A stretch of 39,163 bases of DNA. Source: a virus (taxonomy: Duplodnaviria; Heunggongvirae; Uroviricota; Caudoviricetes). Made by a program: the position numbers and the translations under genes. Below, in pieces: positions 20,139 through 34,413 of this stretch. The number at the start of each line of letters is the position of its first letter. Position 1 is the first letter of the stretch. The notes beneath the pieces were generated by a model, which was not told the DNA's origin, did no database searches, and saw only the letters and a list, made by a program, of their open reading frames with translations. The stretch is from the IMG/VR virus record IMGVR_UViG_2541047942_000002; one strand, written 5' to 3'.

Positions 20139-20408
20139 ATGTTACCGTAATATGTGAGTATCCATCGACTAGACACTAAGCAAAAAAGCTCCCGAAGGAG
20201 CCTTCATTTTCACTTTCTTAAATCTAACGACAGATGGCTAACATTTAAGTATTGTGAAATATTATCAAATGTAATCATCATTGATTTACAAAAGATACAT
20301 TTTGCCCCGAAAGGATTTCTGTCAGAAACATCAAAAGATGATGTTCTATACTGAGAACCATGGCAACACGGGCATCTAAAGTGAATATGGTTTGTAATAT
20401 TTTCTACC

Positions 20409-20621
20409 TCAAAGTGCCACTACATGAACAGCTGCAGGGCCTTTAGGTCCGTTCTCAATACCAAATTCGACTTCCTGATTCTCAGTTAACGTTTTGAAAT
20501 CGTTGCTCTGAATAGCTGAGAAATGCACAAACACATCTTTGCTACCATCTTTCGGCGTGATGAAACCAAAACCTTTTTCAGGGTTAAACCATTTCACTAA
20601 ACCAGTCATTTTGTTAGACAT
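20409..20621 (-). CDS. cspI: cold-shock protein, CspA family
   Basis: 70-aa [45 protein letters not shown]... with RNP1/RNP2 motifs; long AT-rich upstream leader typical of csp genes. Confidence 0.85.
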
Positions 20622-20984
20622 TATTATTACCTTTTGAAGAAGTTAGCCCTTGGGCAGAATGGTCCGAAAAAAAATATCAGAGAGAAAAACCAACAAGGAA
20701 ATCTCAAGAGGTACAAATAATAAAATTATAACAATGACTGCTTCAGATAATTTTGTAACAAACCAGAACACCATTAACGCATGATTAACCAACCATAGCA
20801 AGGATTACTTTTGTAAAGAAAAACACACGAATGAAACAATAGCTTTATTTATTAATAAAACGTGTCATTCTGTCTAATGACCTTTTATCTTACCCTTAAG
20901 ATTTCAAGGATTTTGACTCATGGAAGAGTCCTTTTTATTTAAATTTCACATTCAGCGCTAAAAATAATCCGATTTAATATTAAT

Positions 20985-23073: not shown

Positions 23074-23355
23074 TGAGATTGTGGTGCTTTTTGTGGGAGT
23101 CATCCACTTACGCACTTTGTTTTGCCATGCCAGCAGTTAGCTTCTGCTGTAAAACTATTCATGCAGCAAACCTGCACTTCACCACAATGGTTAGCATACT
23201 TTTCCTGATTAAGATTTTGCCAAATATGCTAGCCATTGTTTCATGTATTGGACCTCCTTACTTTTTATTAAAGAGATCCAATATTCACTACTCTGTCCGT
23301 ATCTCTACTCAGGCATCAGCCTTCTTCGTTATCGTATACAGACGAGCGATGAATT

Positions 23356-23571
23356 TTAATCAGTAATGATGACATTTGCTGCTGCAGGACCTTTAGCACC
23401 ACTCTCTATAGAGAAGGTAACCTTTTGACCTTCAAATAAGGTTCGATAATTATCATTCTGAATCGCAGAAAAATGCACAAACACATCTTTACTACCATCA
23501 ACAGGAGAAATAAAGCCGAAACCTTTATCAGCGTTAAACCATTTTACTAAACCAGTCATTTTATTTGACAT
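23356..23571 (-). CDS. cspB: cold-shock protein, CspA family
   Basis: 71-aa [56 protein letters not shown]...; divergent from cspF as in Qin. Confidence 0.85.
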
Positions 23572-23871
23572 TCTACATTCCTTAACTTGAGCCTTTCGGC
23601 ATAAATGGTTTGCATAACAGAAACGACTTCGTACTTAATTGGAGAGACTCAAAGAAGGAATAAGTGAATAACACCTGAAATGAGAACTGCTTTAGTAAAC
23701 TACTTCGTATATCGTCTGTTCTTCAAACCGACGCAATCATTAACGCATAGTTGAACATATGAAGCAATGTTTATTTTAGACATCCAGCCGTCTTCAACCC
23801 CATCAAAAAACTATAGCTTTCTTCAGGAACGTGTGTATAGTGCGCCAAGTTATCAGTATTAAGGAATTTTT

Positions 23872-27135: not shown

Positions 27136-27291
27136 TTACTCCTCAGGTTCGTAAGCTGTGAAGACAGCGACCTCCGTCTGGCCGGTTCGGATTCGTACCT
27201 CGCAGAGGTCTTTCCTCGTTACCAGTGCCGTCACTATGACGGTTAAACAGATGACGATCAGGGCGATTAACATCGCCTTTTGCTGCTTCAT
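27136..27291 (-). CDS. hokD: Hok-family type I toxin (small membrane peptide)
   Basis: Not in the ORF track (51 aa). Minus-strand ATG at 27289-27291 to TAA at 27136-27138 translates to MKQQKAMLIALIVICLTVIVTALVTRKDLCEVRIRTGQTEVAVFTAYEPEE, a Hok/Gef-family sequence; located downstream of relE. Confidence 0.85.
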   Translation of the reverse strand: MKQQKAMLIALIVICLTVIVTALVTRKDLCEVRIRTGQTEVAVFTAYEPEE

Positions 27292-27362
27292 AGCCTGCTT
27301 CTCCTGTCAACGCAAAGCAGAAGTGTCACCTTCGGTGCGAAACAGAGATGTCATGCTTTGGT

Positions 27363-27650
27363 TCAGAGAATGCGTTTGACCGCCTCGCTATATACTTCCG
27401 AGCGTTCTCTTTTCCCAACAGAAATCACGAAAACGACAACTTTCTCGTCTATAACCTGGTATACAAGGCGATAGCCTGAAGACCGGAGCTTAATCTTGTA
27501 ACAATCAGGCATACCACGGAGCTTGTTTGCTTCAATCCGGGGTGACTCAAGTACTTCAACCAGCTTCTTTTTCAACTGTTCACGTACCGTCGAGCCCAGC
27601 TTTCGCCATTCCTTTAGTGCCCGCTCGTCAAAATCCAGAAAATACGCCAT
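27363..27650 (-). CDS. relE: mRNA interferase toxin RelE
   Basis: 95-aa ORF MAYFLDFDERALKEWRKLGSTVREQLKKKLVEVLESPRIEANKLRGMPDCYKIKLRSSGYRLVYQVIDEKVVVFVISVGKRERSEVY... Confidence 0.95.
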   Translation of the reverse strand: MAYFLDFDERALKEWRKLGSTVREQLKKKLVEVLESPRIEANKLRGMPDCYKIKLRSSGYRLVYQVIDEKVVVFVISVGKRERSEVYSEAVKRIL

Positions 27651-27889
27651 CAGAGTTCATCCAGCGTCACACGTACTGGCTTAGGATTACGAAGCCGTTC
27701 TTTCACTATCTCCACAAGTTCAGCATCTTCATCACTCAGGAGTGTCTGTTTGAACGGCAAGCGTTCATTGTCAGCGATATACTCGAGCATGAGACGAAGC
27801 GCTTCAGAAGGAGTTACACCCATTTTTTCAAGCGCGGCGTAAGAACGCGCTTTAAGTTCATCGTCAATACGCAGGTTAATGCTACCCAT
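27650..27889 (-). CDS. relB: antitoxin RelB
   Basis: 79-aa ORF MGSINLRIDDELKARSYAALEKMGVTPSEALRLMLEYIADNERLPFKQTLLSDEDAELVEIVKERLRNPKPVRVTLDEL; stop overlaps the relE start. Confidence 0.95.
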   Translation of the reverse strand: MGSINLRIDDELKARSYAALEKMGVTPSEALRLMLEYIADNERLPFKQTLLSDEDAELVEIVKERLRNPKPVRVTLDEL

Positions 27890-27894
27890 GTCTT

Positions 27895-27930
27895 ACACCT
27901 ATTGTAATTACAAATGTCATTACAAGTATC
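27895..27930. promoter_or_regulatory. relBE promoter/operator region containing the perfect palindrome TTGTAATTACAA and an adjacent TGTCATTACAA half-site
   Basis: Palindrome read directly at ~27902-27913, 13 nt upstream of the relB start codon. Confidence 0.6.
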
Positions 27931-28219
27931 GCACTACAACATGCTTAGGGCAAGTCACGAAGGAAGTCAGAAAGTAGTCGTAAGAACGGTGATCACTGTC
28001 CGCTTTGTGCCAGGAGCAGCCATTGCTAAGTCCATCCTGTATTGTGCAGGTCAGCTCGTTTTTAAAGAGTCCGGCCATCATCTTACTGGTACAGACACCA
28101 TATACTTTGTGACGGTCAGGCTACATATGCACAACTCAACTTATTCATCTATTTTTTGCTTTAGCATGTCAGTGTTGCTTTCTCGTCGGCGGGTGAGCGG
28201 TGACCTGACCTGTCGATAA
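27914..28219 (+). CDS. ydfV: hypothetical protein (101 aa)
   Basis: ORF-track ORF between relB and flxA; symbol assigned by position and length only; coding potential uncertain. Confidence 0.35.
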   Translation: MSLQVSHYNMLRASHEGSQKVVVRTVITVRFVPGAAIAKSILYCAGQLVFKESGHHLTGTDTIYFVTVRLHMHNSTYSSIFCFSMSVLLSRRRVSGDLTCR

Positions 28220-28371
28220 AGGAACGTAGCACGTTTTATGCAACACCCGCATGCGGCAGAAAATTATTGCCGAACGTTTACCCCTGTCAACAAGCTTTAC
28301 TTTCTGAGGCGCGCCAGCCCGCGAGGAAAACAATCTGAACATCAAACAATTAATGACACAAGAAATACGAT

Positions 28372-28398
28372 TAAAGATTTTTTTGTGCATGCCGATAG
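28372..28398 (+). promoter_or_regulatory. sigma-28 (FliA) class 3 flagellar promoter: TAAAGATT, 11-nt spacer, GCCGATAG
   Basis: Near-consensus match to TAAAGTTT-N11-GCCGATAA read directly, ~25 nt upstream of the flxA ATG. Confidence 0.75.
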
Positions 28399-28421
28399 TG
28401 CTTTTTTAAAAGGAGAAATCT

Positions 28422-28754
28422 ATGTCTGTCACAATTCAGGGAAATACCTCAACCGTTATTTCAAACAACTCCGCCCCGGAAGGAACATCAGAAATAGCCA
28501 AAATCACAAGACAAATTCAGGTGCTGACTGAAAAGCTTGGGAAAATCTCATCGGAAGAGGGGATGACGACACAGCAGAAAAAAGAAATGGCTGCATTGGT
28601 ACAGAAGCAAATTGAAAGCCTCAGGGCTCAACTGGAGCAGTTGTTAAGGCAGCAGGCAGAGAAAAAGAATAAAGACGCGACAGTTCAGCCTGATAAAAAA
28701 GAAGAGAAAAAAGACGATACAAATACCGCTGGCACCATTGATATTTACGTCTAA
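28422..28754 (+). CDS. flxA: FliA-regulated protein FlxA
   Basis: 110-aa ORF MSVTIQGNTSTVISNNSAPEGTSEIAKITRQIQVLTEKLGKISSEEGMTTQQKKEM... Confidence 0.85.
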   Translation: MSVTIQGNTSTVISNNSAPEGTSEIAKITRQIQVLTEKLGKISSEEGMTTQQKKEMAALVQKQIESLRAQLEQLLRQQAEKKNKDATVQPDKKEEKKDDTNTAGTIDIYV

Positions 28755-28768
28755 GTGACAGCCGTATT

Positions 28769-28795
28769 GTGGCCCTCATCGGGCCACTTTTCGCC
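28769..28795 (+). terminator. intrinsic terminator after flxA (GTGGCCC-TCATC-GGGCCAC followed by TTTTCGCC)
   Basis: Perfect 7-bp GC stem directly after the flxA stop. Confidence 0.6.
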
Positions 28796-29190
28796 ATCAG
28801 CCTTTTCTTTAAAGACATATTATCTTTGTATCATTTCTGATAGTTAACATTACAAGATATAAGTAATGGACGCACTCCCAATTAGTCTATTTAAATCGCC
28901 ACGAGTTTAACTGACAACCCATGATCAATTATGAATTGCAACTATTTCTGTAGTCACTTTTGTGGGGACAGTCCACAAAACTGCCAACTTCCGCTTCTTG
29001 CTCTTAGCGGACATTAGCATAGGCTATTTACCATAACGCCTCATTACGCGCACCGCCCAGACTGACTCAGCGCGTTTCTGGCATATCCCCGGTAAAACAA
29101 GTAACAAACCACCCGAAAATGAACACCAGAAACGCGACTTAAGAATCTACCCTATGAATGGATATGCACTCAACCGAATCGATCTTGGTT

Positions 29191-30531
29191 TCAATCTATT
29201 TTATCGGGATCAGGCTTCTTTTTAGGTAACTTCGGGGGCTTAACTTGCTGATGACTTTGCGTTCGGCGCGTAAGCCAGGGATGGTCAGCTTTAGATTTAA
29301 CATAGTATTTTGAGCGTAAATCAATACGGGCATTATCCACTCGTTCATGGACACTCTTTTCATCATCCAGTGGTATAGGCTCCGGGCCATCAACATACTT
29401 TTCCCAGCCCAGCGCTTTCCCGTCATACAGAACGTTAATTTCACCGTCAAAGTTCTCACATACAGTAACAACCGAATGCCTAAGTCGATATCCCCGGCCC
29501 TCACTGCGTACCTGAAACGCACTGCTTTTGTACTGGAAAGTGAGATTTTTAGACAGAACGCGCTTCGCCTGTAGGCTGAAGATATAACCCAGTTCCTCTT
29601 CAGAATGGTGCACATCAAGATGAGCATTATCAGTAGTACGAGGCGACGTAGCGAACCGGTTGTTATAGGCTTCAATAAAGGTCGGCAACCATGCATTTGC
29701 TGTTTCAATATCACTGATATTCTGAAGCCGCATTTCTTTGACCAGCCTGTCCTGTAGTGTCTGATTGGCGCGCTCTACCCGCCCTTTTGCCTGCGGGCTG
29801 TTGGCATGGATTGGCTCGATGCCCTGTGTCTTTATCGCACGAGTGAACTGGGTCAGCTCACCTTCCCGCTCTGGGTTATTTACCCTGAATATACTGTGTC
29901 TATCAGAGTAGAGAGCGAGCGGTACGCCATGATCATTAAGGTAACCCCGGAGGGTTTCCATGTAAGCCCGGGTTGTTTCAGCAGGCACAAAACGCAACGC
30001 CATCAACGCACTGGTGGCATCATCAATGAAAACGATCAGTGTACATCTGGGGCCTCGATTTTCAAACCAGTCATGAGGTGAGCCATCAATCTGGATCAGT
30101 TCACCGTAAGATGGTCGTCGCATGCGGCGTTGATATATACGGGCAATTTTACGACGGCGTTCACGCCATAACCCCTCTTCTATCATCCACTTTCTGAGAG
30201 TTTCAACGGATAAAGATAAACCGTGTATCTCGCGCAATTTTTCGCACGCAAACGTAGGTCCAAAATCAGCGTAACGGCCTTTGAGGAGTGAAATTACTGT
30301 TGCTCTGAATTCAGTAGAAAAGGAATTATTAGGATGCTTTCCACGTCGGTGGGAAACCAGACCAGAAGGCCCTTCATTTCTATACCGTTGCACCAGACGT
30401 TTAACCTGCCGAATAGAAATGCCAATGCGTGCCGCAGCTTGTTCCTGAGTAATATGTCGATTAATTGACTCCTGAATAATCTGAAGTCGGTGGAGTTCCT
30501 TATGACTCATCGTAACAGTCTCTTTGATCAT
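29191..30531 (-). CDS. DDE transposase of the retroviral-integrase (rve) superfamily, IS481/IS21-IstA-like, with N-terminal HTH
   Basis: 446-aa ORF with HTH-like N-terminus and an rve-type catalytic core (QIDGSPHDW ... LALYSDRHSIF ... SPQAKGRVERANQTLQD); element ends not resolved. Confidence 0.8.
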   Translation of the reverse strand: MIKETVTMSHKELHRLQIIQESINRHITQEQAAARIGISIRQVKRLVQRYRNEGPSGLVSHRRGKHPNNSFSTEFRATVISLLKGRYADFGPTFACEKLREIHGLSLSVETLRKWMIEEGLWRERRRKIARIYQRRMRRPSYGELIQIDGSPHDWFENRGPRCTLIVFIDDATSALMALRFVPAETTRAYMETLRGYLNDHGVPLALYSDRHSIFRVNNPEREGELTQFTRAIKTQGIEPIHANSPQAKGRVERANQTLQDRLVKEMRLQNISDIETANAWLPTFIEAYNNRFATSPRTTDNAHLDVHHSEEELGYIFSLQAKRVLSKNLTFQYKSSAFQVRSEGRGYRLRHSVVTVCENFDGEINVLYDGKALGWEKYVDGPEPIPLDDEKSVHERVDNARIDLRSKYYVKSKADHPWLTRRTQSHQQVKPPKLPKKKPDPDKID

Positions 30532-30564
30532 GAAAAATCCCCCAGAGAATTGTCTGGGGACATT

Positions 30565-30984
30565 TTAGAATGGTTCAAAGGGGACATTACAGCTTGGTGT
30601 TAACAATAGCCTGCTTCTCCTTGCCTTCCGGCACTCGCGACAGATTATGTTTAGACGACTGTCGTAGCGACGTATTTCTCCGTCAGGTAATGACCAGATA
30701 AGGTCCGGATCAACCACAGCAGGTTTCTTCACCTTTGCCCTCGAGAGTTTTTTGCGGGCGTTTTGCCAGTCCTTACGCGCCTGTTCAGACGGGAATAACC
30801 CGTAACCAGAGCTGTATACATCGCCACTGGCAACCAGCTCTCTGGCCAGAACGCTCATCAGATATCTTGTTGCCCCAGTTTTAGCTTCCAGTTGTCGTAA
30901 CGTCTCGCGCCCACTCTGGCGTACGAGTTCCACCACCTGCCCTTTAATTTTTTCCCGCTCTTCTTGTGTAAAAACTTTTGCCAC
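30565..30984 (-). CDS. hypothetical prophage early protein (139 aa), possibly altered at its 3' end by the adjacent transposase insertion
   Basis: ORF-track ORF downstream of the replication gene; C-terminal 25 residues are low-complexity and run into the hairpin flanking the transposase gene. Confidence 0.45.
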   Translation of the reverse strand: MAKVFTQEEREKIKGQVVELVRQSGRETLRQLEAKTGATRYLMSVLARELVASGDVYSSGYGLFPSEQARKDWQNARKKLSRAKVKKPAVVDPDLIWSLPDGEIRRYDSRLNIICRECRKARRSRLLLTPSCNVPFEPF

Positions 30985-31024
30985 AAGTCCTCCTGAACAT
31001 TACTTTATACCCTAAAATCAACAC

Positions 31025-31990
31025 TTATCCCCTGAAACCAGGCGGAATTTCTGTATCCGGTTCAGAAATATGATTCACACAACGCTGTACAGGTGAACGT
31101 CCCAGGCGGATGACCAGTTCGTCCCATTTTTCGCGGAGTTTTGACGGGCTCATGATGTTTTTTACCCAGAATTGATCTCGCTGTACCCGACCAAACATTT
31201 CGCAAATTTGTCTGTGGCTTCTGCCATCCAGCATCCGCATTGTGCGCACGTCATTGGCCCAGGCTGTCCAGTTAGGCTCTTTTGGTCGCATGATCTCTCC
31301 ATCGTCGCTGGCAGCCTGTTCGTAAAGGTTCACGATCCGCCCCCAAATCCACTGCGCACACGCCAAATCCTCCCTGCTACCCCACTGGCGTTTTTTCGCA
31401 CTAAACACAACCGCGTCGGGGTTCCGGGTTAAAAAATCCTGTTCAGCGGTCTGCGGGTCCGGTTGCGAAGCTTCCGGACGAAAAGTGTTTTTATTCTCTG
31501 TAGTAATCTCTGTTGTATTCTCTGTAAGATCATCAGGCCATTTTGACCCGATGACATTGGGTCGTTTTGAACCAATGGAGCGTTTCATTTTGACCTCTTC
31601 CATCGTGTCATTTTGACCTGATGGAGCGGCGCATTTTAAACCGATGGATTCGCTCAATTTGCCACCATCTAAAAGCTCGCTCCCGTAGTTGATCGTGTAG
31701 AAATTGGTCATATCGCGCTTTGATTTATTGAGCTTTTCACAACGCAAAAGCCCCAGCGTTTTCAGACTTGCAAACGCGCGCTTTAACGTTGACTCTGACC
31801 AGAATGGGAACTGTTCCAGCCATTGTTCCGTTGTGTTGTAAATCCAGCGAACACCATCACATTCCATGCCGGAATTGGTATCTCTCAACCAGTAATGCAA
31901 CTGCTGCAACACAATGGCTTCATTTAAGCCAATCTTCATCGCAAGCTGTGTGTTTATAACCAGTGGGCGTTCAGCAAAAAGAAGGCTCAT
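31025..31990 (-). CDS. replication initiator, lambda O-like replisome organiser containing the origin iterons
   Basis: ORF trimmed to internal ATG (MSLLFAERPLVINTQLAMKIGLNEAIVLQQLHYWL...) because the ORF-track start is a TTG overlapping the upstream gene; five ~23-bp iterons inside the coding region. Confidence 0.7.
   Translation of the reverse strand: MSLLFAERPLVINTQLAMKIGLNEAIVLQQLHYWLRDTNSGMECDGVRWIYNTTEQWLEQFPFWSESTLKRAFASLKTLGLLRCEKLNKSKRDMTNFYTINYGSELLDGGKLSESIGLKCAAPSGQNDTMEEVKMKRSIGSKRPNVIGSKWPDDLTENTTEITTENKNTFRPEASQPDPQTAEQDFLTRNPDAVVFSAKKRQWGSREDLACAQWIWGRIVNLYEQAASDDGEIMRPKEPNWTAWANDVRTMRMLDGRSHRQICEMFGRVQRDQFWVKNIMSPSKLREKWDELVIRLGRSPVQRCVNHISEPDTEIPPGFRG
31538..31650. repeat. 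origin-of-replication iteron array: five direct repeats of ~19 bp (CATTTTGACC-type) at ~23-bp periodicity, with an AT-rich/TCTCTGT-repeat region on the low-coordinate side
   Basis: Repeats read directly: CCATTTTGACCCGATGACA, CGTTTTGAACCAATGGAGC, CATTTTGACCTCTTCCATC, CATTTTGACCTGATGGAGC, CATTTTAAACCGATGGATT. Confidence 0.75.
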
Positions 31991-32492
31991 AATTCCATCC
32001 AGCTTTTTGTTGGTATTGCTGTCGATACGCAAGTTTGAAAGCAATTGCTTTTTCTATAAGTTCGTCAGTTTCACGATCCACTACGGCAGGATCAGCAAAA
32101 AGCAGTCCGGACTCCACCACATCGCCATATTCTTTGTTTAACCCGGCGATCATGTACGTGATGCTTTTTCCGTCACTAATTTCACGATACAACCTGAAAT
32201 CATTAATCCGAATAGCCTCCATAATTGCAGGCACTAGCGCCGTGAACTTTTCACGCTTATCCCTGGTGTCGATAGCCTTCCAGCGTTCGAATATCTTCAC
32301 TCGATTAACGCCAAGTGCTCGCTGATCAACCGCGCCACCTTCATCTGTGACACGCTGAACATCGATGTTCGGGCGCTCTTTCAAAGCCCAGAATGCTTCA
32401 GTGATTAATATCGTCGCCTGCTCCTGTGTCATTCCTGGTCGACATATCCAGGCATCCAGAGCCTCACGAGCCTGTTCAGGAGTGATTTTCAT
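31971..32492 (-). CDS. hypothetical early protein (173 aa) immediately downstream of the cro-like dicC
   Basis: ORF-track ORF MKITPEQAREALDAWICRPGMTQEQATILITEAFWALK...; start overlaps the dicC stop; no recognised function. Confidence 0.55.
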   Translation of the reverse strand: MKITPEQAREALDAWICRPGMTQEQATILITEAFWALKERPNIDVQRVTDEGGAVDQRALGVNRVKIFERWKAIDTRDKREKFTALVPAIMEAIRINDFRLYREISDGKSITYMIAGLNKEYGDVVESGLLFADPAVVDRETDELIEKAIAFKLAYRQQYQQKAGWNYEPSFC

Positions 32493-34355: not shown

Positions 34356-34413
34356 TTTCTGGTGACGTTTGGCGGTATCAGTTTTACTCCGTGACTGCTC
34401 TGCCGCCCTTTTT
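34356..34413 (+). ncRNA. dicF: DicF small regulatory RNA (ftsZ-targeting) with its intrinsic terminator
   Basis: Sequence TTTCTGGTGACGTTTGGCGGTATCAGTTTTACTCCGTGACTGCTCTGCCGCCCTTTTT matches DicF as I recall it; GGCGG...CCGCC stem plus U-tract; located between the ydfB/C-like ORF and dicB. Confidence 0.8.

Follow-up and report, generated by a model that had tools for sequence, protein, structure and literature searches.

The window analysed here, a 39,163-nt stretch of DNA from the virus record IMGVR_UViG_2541047942_000002 (Caudoviricetes), carries an intact transposase gene together with relB, relE and the toxin gene hokD (Table 1). Read along the minus strand, the order of features between 30605 and 27305 is left inverted repeat (IRL), leader hairpin, transposase, palindrome, cargo (flxA, ydfV), relB-relE and right inverted repeat (IRR); the transposase, flxA, ydfV, relB and relE are the only genes in this interval.

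Table 1. Features of the hokD-transposase region, in window coordinates.
Feature	Position	Strand	Basis and remarks
hokD	27136-27291	minus	tblastn, 100% identity to HokD; Pfam HOK_GEF, E 1e-23; RefSeq annotation
Target-site duplication, right-hand copy	27290-27304	.	ATAGCCTGCTTCTCC on the plus strand, GGAGAAGCAGGCTAT on the transposase strand
Right terminal inverted repeat (IRR)	27305-27330	plus	TGTCAACGCAAAGCAGAAGTGTCACC; tip at 27305
relE	27363-27650	minus	Pfam ParE_toxin, E 2e-13
relB	27650-27889	minus	Pfam RelB, E 1e-32
ydfV ORF	27914-28219	.	mostly in the Qin-specific cargo
Qin-specific cargo	28017-28987	.	most of the ydfV ORF, flxA and its terminator
flxA	28422-28754		Pfam FlxA; followed by a terminator
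Transposase module, 1,618 bp, catalogued as 'ISEsa1'	28988-30605	minus	alignment ends in >20 loci; module boundaries
Transposase gene	29191-30531	minus	intact ORF; product of 446 aa, or 439 aa if started at the second ATG (30510)
Leader hairpin followed by a U-run	30539-30560	minus	terminator-like match, fold; right-hand hairpin of the sequence-only reading
DUF977 gene	30565-30984	minus	Pfam DUF977; compared with the undeleted form in L098
Left terminal inverted repeat (IRL)	30580-30605	minus	TGTTAACACCAAGCTGTAATGTCCCC on the transposase strand; tip at 30605
Target-site duplication, left-hand copy	30606-30620	.	same 15-mer, at the left tip
sok/mok leader remnant of hokD, 28 nt	30606-30633	minus	rest gone in a 1.97-kb deletion

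The 446-aa product of the minus-strand ORF 29191-30531 had been taken in an earlier, sequence-only reading for an rve-family (DDE) transposase of a mobile element, and this assignment holds: Pfam finds HTH domains (HTH_28/29/23/32) in the N-terminal part and an rve_3 core, and the NCBIfam model NF033594, 'ISNCY family transposase', matches with 459.9 bits against a cut-off of 250. A PDB sequence search gave a marginal match to a retroviral integrase core only. The gene shows ~99% nucleotide identity to copies named in RefSeq as 'IS1202-like element ISEsa1 family transposase'. IS1202-family transposases have been described as large DDE enzymes of 394-507 aa, with an HTH N-terminal region, an RNase H-fold core and Q, not K/R, as the seventh residue past the catalytic E (Harmer & Hall 2023, PMC10132070). 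Such a size, N-terminal HTH and core are found in the 446-aa protein, and Q stands at +7 after E in its translation (...KGRVERANQTLQDRL), the catalytic E being assigned by motif resemblance only. The 446-aa gene is an ISEsa1-type transposase gene of the IS1202 family (ISNCY). E. coli K-12 matches the window up to 29375 only, and its ydfW equals the last 49 codons of the transposase; ydfW ('intK') is a 3' remnant of an ISEsa1-type transposase, which bears out the correspondence with an integrase-like pseudogene of K-12 Qin mentioned in the earlier reading. In the RefSeq annotation, an intact transposase is split into 'YdfW' and a pseudogene.

In the sequence-only reading, the transposase gene was flanked by two hairpins, each containing GGGGACA in direct orientation. 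Both hairpins exist, 5-7 nt away from the positions then given: TTTTGTGG/GGACAGT/CCACAAAA lies at 28958-28980 (not 28953-28975), and CCCCAGA/GAATTG/TCTGGGG at 30540-30559 (not 30547-30566). The 7-mers exist as well, with a third copy besides the two recorded, all of them on the plus strand (28964, 30556 and 30580); this count in the 39-kb window is not above the 4.7 expected. Perfect 8-bp hairpins number 13 in the window versus 4.4 in shuffles, and the folds score z = -1.3 to -1.6 (left hairpin) and z = -2.3 (right region). Taking into account these 7-mer counts, hairpin counts and z-scores, the left hairpin and its 7-mer (28964) are within chance expectations. The right hairpin and the right-hand 7-mers (30556 and 30580) are real features, since they are kept in relatives with only 70-90% nucleotide identity, in which the hairpin is retained with different stem sequences. 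The right hairpin belongs to the 5' leader of the transposase gene; the inner end repeat forms the 5' arm, and GGGGG, the Shine-Dalgarno sequence for the first ATG, forms the 3' arm. Together with the U-run, this hairpin may shield the transposase gene from transcripts of the hok promoter, either through termination or by hiding the ribosome-binding site.

That these hairpins bound a ~1.6-kb element, with GGGGACA as target duplication or end-recognition motif, can be given practically no probability. The hairpins and 7-mers that this model draws on do exist, but the left pair falls mid-element, in cargo DNA, and is absent from plasmid copies, its fold being no better than shuffles, whereas the right hairpin is placed 45 nt inside the left-end tip. 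Moreover, by our own estimate, about one pair of ~40-nt regions in eight would be expected to share a 7-mer.

Comparison with more than 100 related loci places the left end of the element at 30605 (5'-TGTTAACACC...), where homology breaks sharply in about 20 different contexts. The right end is at 27305 (...GCGTTGACA-3'), 1.7 kb to the left of the region considered previously, and IRR was found there as the sole left-end-like sequence in the window. The two 26-bp terminal repeats match in inverted orientation at 19 of 26 positions (22/30), with tips TGTTAAC... at 30605 and ...GTTGACA at 27305, that is, 5'-TGT...ACA-3'; read outward, the IRR tip is a perfect TTGACA, and the IRR 26-mer is identical at the ends of copies L147, L148 and L166. 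Thus, the former statement that terminal inverted repeats were missing is right for the interval then searched and wrong for the element as a whole: a repeat search of 28700-30800 gave near the hairpins weak matches only, none of them at the break points. These inverted repeats are conventional and their ends do not lie at the hairpins, which is the outcome that the sequence-only reading itself had named as contrary to its model.

Each end also carries two RRTGTCMCC repeats spaced 24-25 nt apart, TAATGTCCCC and the inner AAATGTCCCC (30556-30565) on the left, and AAGTGTCACC and AGATGTCATG on the right, where the second RRTGTC repeat is at 27346-27355. These motifs are conserved in relatives and are candidate transposase-binding repeats. 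GGGGACA at 30556 and 30580 corresponds to the left-end repeats, and the former idea of 'recognition structures' survives for these two copies only, which make up the motif repeated at the left end. The target duplication is not GGGGACA, as had been considered, but a perfect 15-bp direct repeat, GGAGAAGCAGGCTAT, which adjoins both element tips (27305 and 30605).

Members of the IS1202 family have imperfect terminal inverted repeats of ~22-29 bp and target duplications of 3-6, 15-18 or 24-29 bp; Harmer & Hall (2023, PMC10132070) count among the family features 5'-TGT...ACA-3' ends, Q at +7 and an additional binding site inside the element. The 27305-30605 unit shows tips and imperfect repeats of this kind, has the inverted-repeat motif once more a little inside each end, and is flanked by a duplication that in the window measures 15 bp. 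It is highly probable that the transposase gene is part of an IS1202-family unit transposon with a length of 3,301 bp (27305-30605 of the window), and not of a hairpin-bounded insertion sequence; the weakness of the inverted repeats counts against this assignment. The unit looks intact in the window: its ORF is complete, and at both tips it is identical to plasmid copies. The block in common with plasmids, 28986-30633, was also considered as the element and discarded: 30606-30633 is hok leader, held in common with plasmids because of the target specificity, and 28988 is a module boundary only. No 27-bp duplication was found outside this block.

The gene hokD lies outside the element and is its target, the element standing exactly at the hokD start. 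The insertion splits hokD from its sok/mok leader; the Shine-Dalgarno sequence and ATG of the gene are still in place, as the target duplication restores both. The hok/sok-type arrangement, a Hok/Gef peptide gene preceded by a mok/sok leader, is found here with 28 nt of leader left in the window. In Shigella, as in the majority of Qin contigs, the complete hok leader adjoins the left end, and Rfam sok (RF01794) matches stop at the left-end tip in 8 related loci. The deletion that removed 1.97 kb with the hok leader at the left flank would be later than the insertion; the last ~20 codons and the stop of the DUF977 gene now come from the hok-leader remnant and the transposon left end. Plain insertion into hok, with the remainder of hok adjoining 28988, was rejected by tblastn, which found no hok there.

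An empty site is present in the Qin-like prophage of E. coli CP53, near ydfJ, where leader, one 15-mer and hokD are contiguous. Comparison with such a site in a related prophage, as had been advised with the first reading, is in line with the ends and the 15-bp duplication given above. Homology to the hokD side ends at 27305 in most E. coli genomes (thousands). On the flxA side no empty site was found, as is to be expected since flxA is cargo: the junction is present in nearly all flxA-bearing E. coli, and those with flxA and without the junction have IS1 or other rearrangements.

Inside the element, the transposase module ends at an imperfect palindrome, GTCCGCT-N10-AGCGGAC (28988-29012). The right-hand module (27305-28016), with relBE, is conserved, being 98-99% identical in plasmid copies, and RefSeq lists the RelBE proteins of K-12 and those of plasmids under identical accessions. 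The Qin cargo stretch is replaced in other copies by DNA unrelated to it: by ncr/chr genes, by cytochrome b and a CDF transporter, or by SDR/LysR genes.

It could be thought that the mobile unit is just the catalogued 1.6-kb ISEsa1 (~28997-30605), which has no target duplication, and that flxA-relBE is neighbouring prophage DNA. The ISfinder entry for ISEsa1 gives 1,609 bp, a 15/22 inverted repeat and no duplication (PMC10132070), homology among copies with different cargo ends at 28988-28997, and several copies of the 1.6-kb module end in ...AAGCGGACA-3', with an ACA tip. Taking into account that ...GACA-3' module ends occur in many copies, the 1.6-kb module could once have been, or could still be, an independent insertion sequence. 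However, no copy of this module was found isolated or with its own duplication, and its end has no inverted-orientation similarity to the left end. All contexts with enough sequence run through the cargo to relBE, and then reach an identical right end of 26 bp and a duplication of 15-16 bp that is specific to the allele. Furthermore, the left tip is separated by 1,609-1,610 bp from an IS110-family ISEsa2 insertion, a distance equal to the catalogued length, which suggests that the catalogued ISEsa1 end is the ISEsa2 insertion junction. A 1,609-bp unit with a 15/22 inverted repeat and no duplication is not what was found at this locus, and the catalogued unit is very unlikely to be the mobile one.

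At least 12 distinct hok-family sequences contain related elements with other cargo at the position used in hokD; the orientation, too, is almost invariably shared, the left end lying beside the hok leader. Counted from the first base of the hok Shine-Dalgarno sequence (GGAG), the insertion point lies ~15-16 nt downstream, and its distance is constant relative to GGAG, not to ATG. Five complete copies, including that of the window, each have their own perfect 15-16-bp duplication; the other four, of 4.6-12.8 kb, carry metal-resistance cargo and lie in different hok alleles. These are L147 (12,843 bp; duplication GGAGAAGTCAGCTAT, 15 bp), L148 (7,082 bp; GGAGAAAAAGGCTAT, 15 bp), L163 (4,600 bp; 16 bp) and L166 (6,094 bp; GGAGAAGAAGGCCAT, 15 bp). 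An intact copy of the pMRY16-398_1 target is present in plasmids, constituting an empty site. Tandem arrays of the type right end-15 nt-left end, seen in L162, L164 and L021, lend further support to the transposon; against it speak the insertion in L020, which has the opposite orientation, and the left ends in L009, L018, L019, L023, L036 and L037 (far ends not recovered), which stand beside non-hok DNA. In L116, the same 3,301-bp unit occupies a non-hok site with a 6-bp duplication, and one strand-transfer geometry does not explain both this length and that of 15 bp. A DNA palindrome or cruciform as the target is not supported and is speculative, the z-scores of target DNA folds (-0.3 to -1.4) not being significant.

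Alternatively, the relBE-flxA-transposase block might have come into hok loci by homologous or illegitimate recombination, with no transposition, the 15-bp repeats being the hok ribosome-binding region present twice. Hok loci do resemble one another, recombinant copies with mismatched flanks exist (L002, L145 and L131), and earlier authors speak of 'integration' of relBE and name no vehicle. Nevertheless, the 15-mer stands once in an intact hok locus, and the 15-mer pair is identical within each element and different between elements. The 15-bp repeats adjoin the TGT/ACA tips of an inverted repeat of a DDE transposase family, and the 3,301-bp unit also occurs, with its own duplication, at the non-hok site mentioned above. 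Recombination as the sole origin is thus very improbable.

For the 3,301-bp transposon, a mechanism can be proposed from these sequence comparisons, which are the source of all that is said here on where the transposase binds and cuts and on how its targets are chosen. The DDE transposase would bind the repeated motif at both ends and cut at the TGT/ACA tips, and would then join the ends, with a stagger of 15 nt, to the translation-initiation region of hok, the hok target probably being recognised on the leader side. The insertion would part hok from its sok/mok control region and put it behind relBE, which would be the origin of the relB-relE-hokD (relBEF) operon of E. coli.

With ISEsa1 of Cronobacter sakazakii (ISNCY/IS1202 group), the element shares transposase, left end and transposase module, but the catalogued sequence has 1,609 bp, a 15/22 repeat, no duplication and no known target (PMC10132070), whereas the copies described here have 3.3-12.8 kb, contain relBE and cargo, and target hok. 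In the published tree, ISEsa1 falls outside the short-duplication (ISAjo2) and long-duplication (IS1202) sub-groups, and pairs with ISCARN112 in a third (PMC10132070). The ISAjo2/ISAba32 subgroup has a related DDE transposase (41% identity to TnpAjo2), TGT/ACA tips and a second internal repeat per end (PMC10132070), and it is likewise frequent on plasmids and inserts in an oriented, site-specific manner with the left end beside the recognised element. However, its targets are dif/pdif/xrs sites, where its members lie 5-6 bp from a XerC-binding arm and make 3-6-bp duplications, whereas the element of the window has a 15-16-bp duplication and uses the hok translation-initiation region, not Xer sites. 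The ISTde1 subgroup resembles it in its long duplication (15-18 bp), but neither target specificity nor relBE cargo has been reported for that subgroup. The IS1202-family 'transporter IS' tISKpn21 and tISKpn65 also have a transposase that moves extra genes between the ends; they differ in carrying one passenger ORF and making 5-bp duplications at dif-like sites, while a fixed relBE module and exchangeable multi-gene cargo are found here. As for Tn7, the ISAjo2 transposase has been modelled on TnsB, with which it has DDE-region motifs in common, and further likenesses are the TGT/ACA tips, the presence of several transposase-binding repeats at either end, and insertion in one orientation at a set distance from a recognised sequence (Harmer & Hall, PMC10132070). 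Nonetheless, the Tn7-like set of a TnsB-type transposase with TnsA, TnsC and a target selector is not found, as genes of the TnsA, TnsC and TnsD/E type are absent from 27305-30605, and the duplication is of 15 bp versus 5 bp.

On balance, we favour, with some reserve, the view that ISEsa1, rather than being an insertion sequence, represents the transposase arm of hok-targeting transposons, a family that had not been recognised before. Such transposons would enter Hok genes of plasmids and prophages at the ribosome-binding site and in one orientation, making 15-bp duplications and cutting the toxin off from its antisense control, and would carry their own relBE addiction module and exchangeable cargo (nickel, chromate and cation-efflux genes; IncF, IncHI1B and IncHI2 plasmids); a single event would have made both the relBEF operon and K-12 ydfW/'intK'. 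Within this proposal, the structure of the hok-targeting transposon is well supported, and both target choice by the transposase itself and unpublished status are uncertain. Ramisetty and Santhosh (2016) are cited by later papers for the 'integration of relBE' into hokD. In the literature searched, which did not extend to that work, no link of IS1202 or ISEsa1 to hok or relBE was found, and a 2026 preprint surveying Hok makes no mention of such a transposon.

These findings fill a gap in the IS1202-family paper (PMC10132070), in which ISEsa1 had neither a duplication nor a target: a duplication (15-16 bp) and a target (the hok translation-initiation region) were both found here. A second kind of site-specific targeting is added to the family, beside that of Xer/dif, making the basis of target choice testable by comparison. 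A vehicle can also be named for the horizontal spread of relBE, and a concrete origin proposed for the relB-relE-hokD operon, for the missing sok/mok leader of hokD and for the ydfW/'intK' and ydfV annotations of K-12. Likewise, hundreds of plasmid 'ISEsa1' calls are to be corrected to parts of larger transposons carrying metal resistance.

Comparison with related loci supports well the structure of 27305-30605 as an intact, relBE-carrying transposon of the IS1202 family (3,301 bp) that targets hok genes and is apparently still mobile. Such a unit, underlying the DDE transposase gene, hairpins and GGGGACA repeats picked out at 28950-30570 in the sequence-only reading, is of greater interest than an isolated insertion sequence would be.

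Features of the element and its borders in the window, in minus-strand order (gene identities from Pfam and RefSeq)
Feature	Position	Remark
Duplication, left copy	30606-30620	
Left repeat	30580-30605	inner repeat 30556-30565
Leader hairpin and U-run	30539-30560	
Transposase	29191-30531	minus strand
Palindrome ending the transposase module	28988-29012	
Cargo, including flxA and the left hairpin of the sequence-only reading	28017-28987	
relBE module	27305-28016	
Right repeat	27305-27330	
Duplication, right copy	27290-27304	
hokD	27136-27291	

The left end, upstream of the transposase, was compared in 78 loci from other genomes. Homology breaks sharply at 30605, and every copy, read in the orientation of the transposase, starts 5'-TGTTAACACCAAGCTGTAATGTCCCC regardless of the DNA outside. 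In most contexts a hok/sok leader adjoins this end, with full-length matches to Rfam sok (RF01794) ending at the left tip in eight loci. Similarity is only about 70-80% between these leaders but above 99% between the elements, which are therefore independent insertions at one spot. Downstream of the transposase, the shared sequence ends at 28988-28997; the rest of hok was never found in the DNA beyond this point, and one 'downstream flank' occurs there with different hok leaders. A search of the window for sequences resembling the left end gave a single, inverted match (27305-27330, 19/26), located directly upstream of the hokD start, and the 15 nt outside this right tip, GGAGAAGCAGGCTAT, are identical to those outside the left tip. 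The limits 28986-30633, comprising all that plasmid copies share with the window, were superseded by these ends.

An empty site exists in E. coli CP53, where leader, one 15-mer and hokD are contiguous in a Qin-like prophage beside ydfJ, relBE, flxA and the transposase being absent. The hokD-side match ends at 27305 in most E. coli genomes, and at least 80% of the element is present in about 760 of 5,426. The common right repeat also stands at the end, beside a hok coding sequence, of four further, independent copies: L147, on plasmid pMRY16-398_1 (12,843 bp; cargo ncrABCY and chrBA; duplication GGAGAAGTCAGCTAT), intact copies of whose target are present on related plasmids; L148, on plasmid pRHB39-C10_2 (7,082 bp; SDR and LysR, with an ISEc52 insertion; GGAGAAAAAGGCTAT); L166, on the IncHI2 plasmid pMS7884A (6,094 bp; cytochrome b and a CDF transporter, with an inserted ISEsa2; GGAGAAGAAGGCCAT); and L163, from a metagenome (4,600 bp; a membrane protein, CDF-like; 16-bp duplication).

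Pooling left-end and right-end junctions gives insertions at this position in at least 12 different hok-type sequences. In three loci differing in Shine-Dalgarno-ATG spacing (L010, L013, L145), the distance to the junction is constant from GGAG, not from ATG. One insertion (L020) is reversed in orientation and lies at the opposite edge of the 15 nt. Tandem arrays of right end, 15 nt and left end (L162, L164, L021) show that the duplication restores a usable target. The identical 3,301-bp unit also occurs at a non-hok site (L116, 1345-4645), flanked by a 6-bp duplication (CGCCTT) rather than one of 15 bp. Both here and in the hok targets, a TAGCC motif precedes the left edge of the duplication by 20 nt. 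Some copies are recombinant or rearranged: in L002 (pEnt261) a plasmid hok leader is adjoined by Qin-type cargo, L145 and L131 have mismatched flanks, and in L119 a deletion from the right end extends into hokD.

The 446-aa product of the transposase ORF combines an rve_3 integrase core with four overlapping Pfam matches of HTH type at its N-terminus. Its match to NCBIfam NF033594, 'ISNCY family transposase', reaches 459.9 bits, with the cut-off at 250. Near-identical copies are named 'IS1202-like element ISEsa1 family transposase' in RefSeq. In L084, 100% identical to the window, RefSeq gives 'protein YdfW' (29191-29340) and a 'partial' transposase pseudogene (29461-30510), despite the ORF being intact; the first label is the K-12 name carried over. 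In Harmer & Hall 2023 (PMC10132070), the IS1202 family is defined by tips of TGT/ACA, an additional internal binding site in each end, and Q in position +7 counted from the catalytic E; its sub-groups are distinguished by duplication length. At the sequence level, the ends at 27305 and 30605 show all of these features. In the same work, ISEsa1 is described as 1,609 bp long, with an inverted repeat of 15/22 and no duplication, and no targets were found for its group. The junction with ISEsa2, an insertion seen in many copies, lies 1,609-1,610 bp from the left tip, which is the length given for ISEsa1 in ISfinder; the catalogued right end is therefore probably that junction. ISEsa2, of the IS110 family, sits in the spacer of the first of two palindromes (L166 16336-17830; L007-L013).

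These similar, imperfect palindromes, GTCCGCT-N10-AGCGGAC(A), bracket every cargo variant (window 28988-29012 and about 28000-28024; L163, L166, L147), so that AAGCGGACA flanks the cargo on either side as a direct repeat of 9 bp. Cargos of at least four unrelated kinds begin directly after the first palindrome.

A preprint by Siguier et al. reports that another subgroup targets Xer sites in an oriented manner, and does not mention ISEsa1. A 2019 review describes hokD as the site of 'integration of the relBE system', citing Ramisetty & Santhosh 2016, and a later paper from that group treats such systems as units of promoter plus ORFs that move, the vehicle being unnamed. No link of ISEsa1 or IS1202 to hok or relBE was found in the searchable literature, which covered a survey of hok loci from 2026; the true ends, duplication and target described here seem to be new. 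A possible rationale for targeting hok is that one addiction module displaces another.

The finding from which this analysis started is largely explained away. Both hairpins exist, 5-7 nt away from where they had been placed (28958-28980 and 30540-30559), and GGGGACA is present in three copies, all on the plus strand (28964, 30556, 30580), but neither hairpins nor 7-mer mark the element ends. The 7-mer count compares with 4.7 expected in the whole window; perfect 8-bp hairpins are not rare there, since 13 are present (4.4 in shuffles), and the fold of the left hairpin (z about -1.3 to -1.6) is no improvement on shuffled sequence. Relatives of 70-90% identity retain the leader hairpin, built on different stem sequences (CCCCAGA/TCTGGGG, CCCCG/CGGGG, CACCCA/TGGTGGG); in all of them the inner end repeat pairs with the G-rich Shine-Dalgarno sequence, and a U-run follows the hairpin. 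This structure might block incoming transcription or translation, a reasonable role because the element enters a hok transcript.

Later deletions have altered the surroundings. The full sok/mok leader is retained at the left end in most Qin contigs and in Shigella. In the window, a deletion at a microhomology of 10-12 nt (gtgccgRaag) has taken out 1.97 kb between the leader and the 3' end of DUF977; the DUF977 gene lost its last ~20 codons, and its ORF now terminates inside the left end of the transposon (30565-30634). The undeleted form also has a methyltransferase-like pseudogene and small ORFs. In K-12, a 2,837-bp deletion removed 29376-32212, and the transposase remnant, annotated ydfW, is the integrase-like pseudogene of K-12 Qin to which the sequence-only reading referred.

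Read outward, the right tip (27305-27310) is TTGACA, a perfect -35 hexamer, and TGTAAT faces inward in the left end (30586-30591), at 14 nt from the tip. Joined in a circle, as happens in copy-out-paste-in elements, the two could make up a promoter spanning the junction. The ydfV ORF (27914-28219) straddles the boundary between cargo and relBE module, has no Pfam match and may not be a real gene. Elsewhere in the window, Rfam identifies two cspA-type thermoregulator leaders (20363-20768, 23340-23732) and DicF RNA (34357-34408), as expected for Qin.
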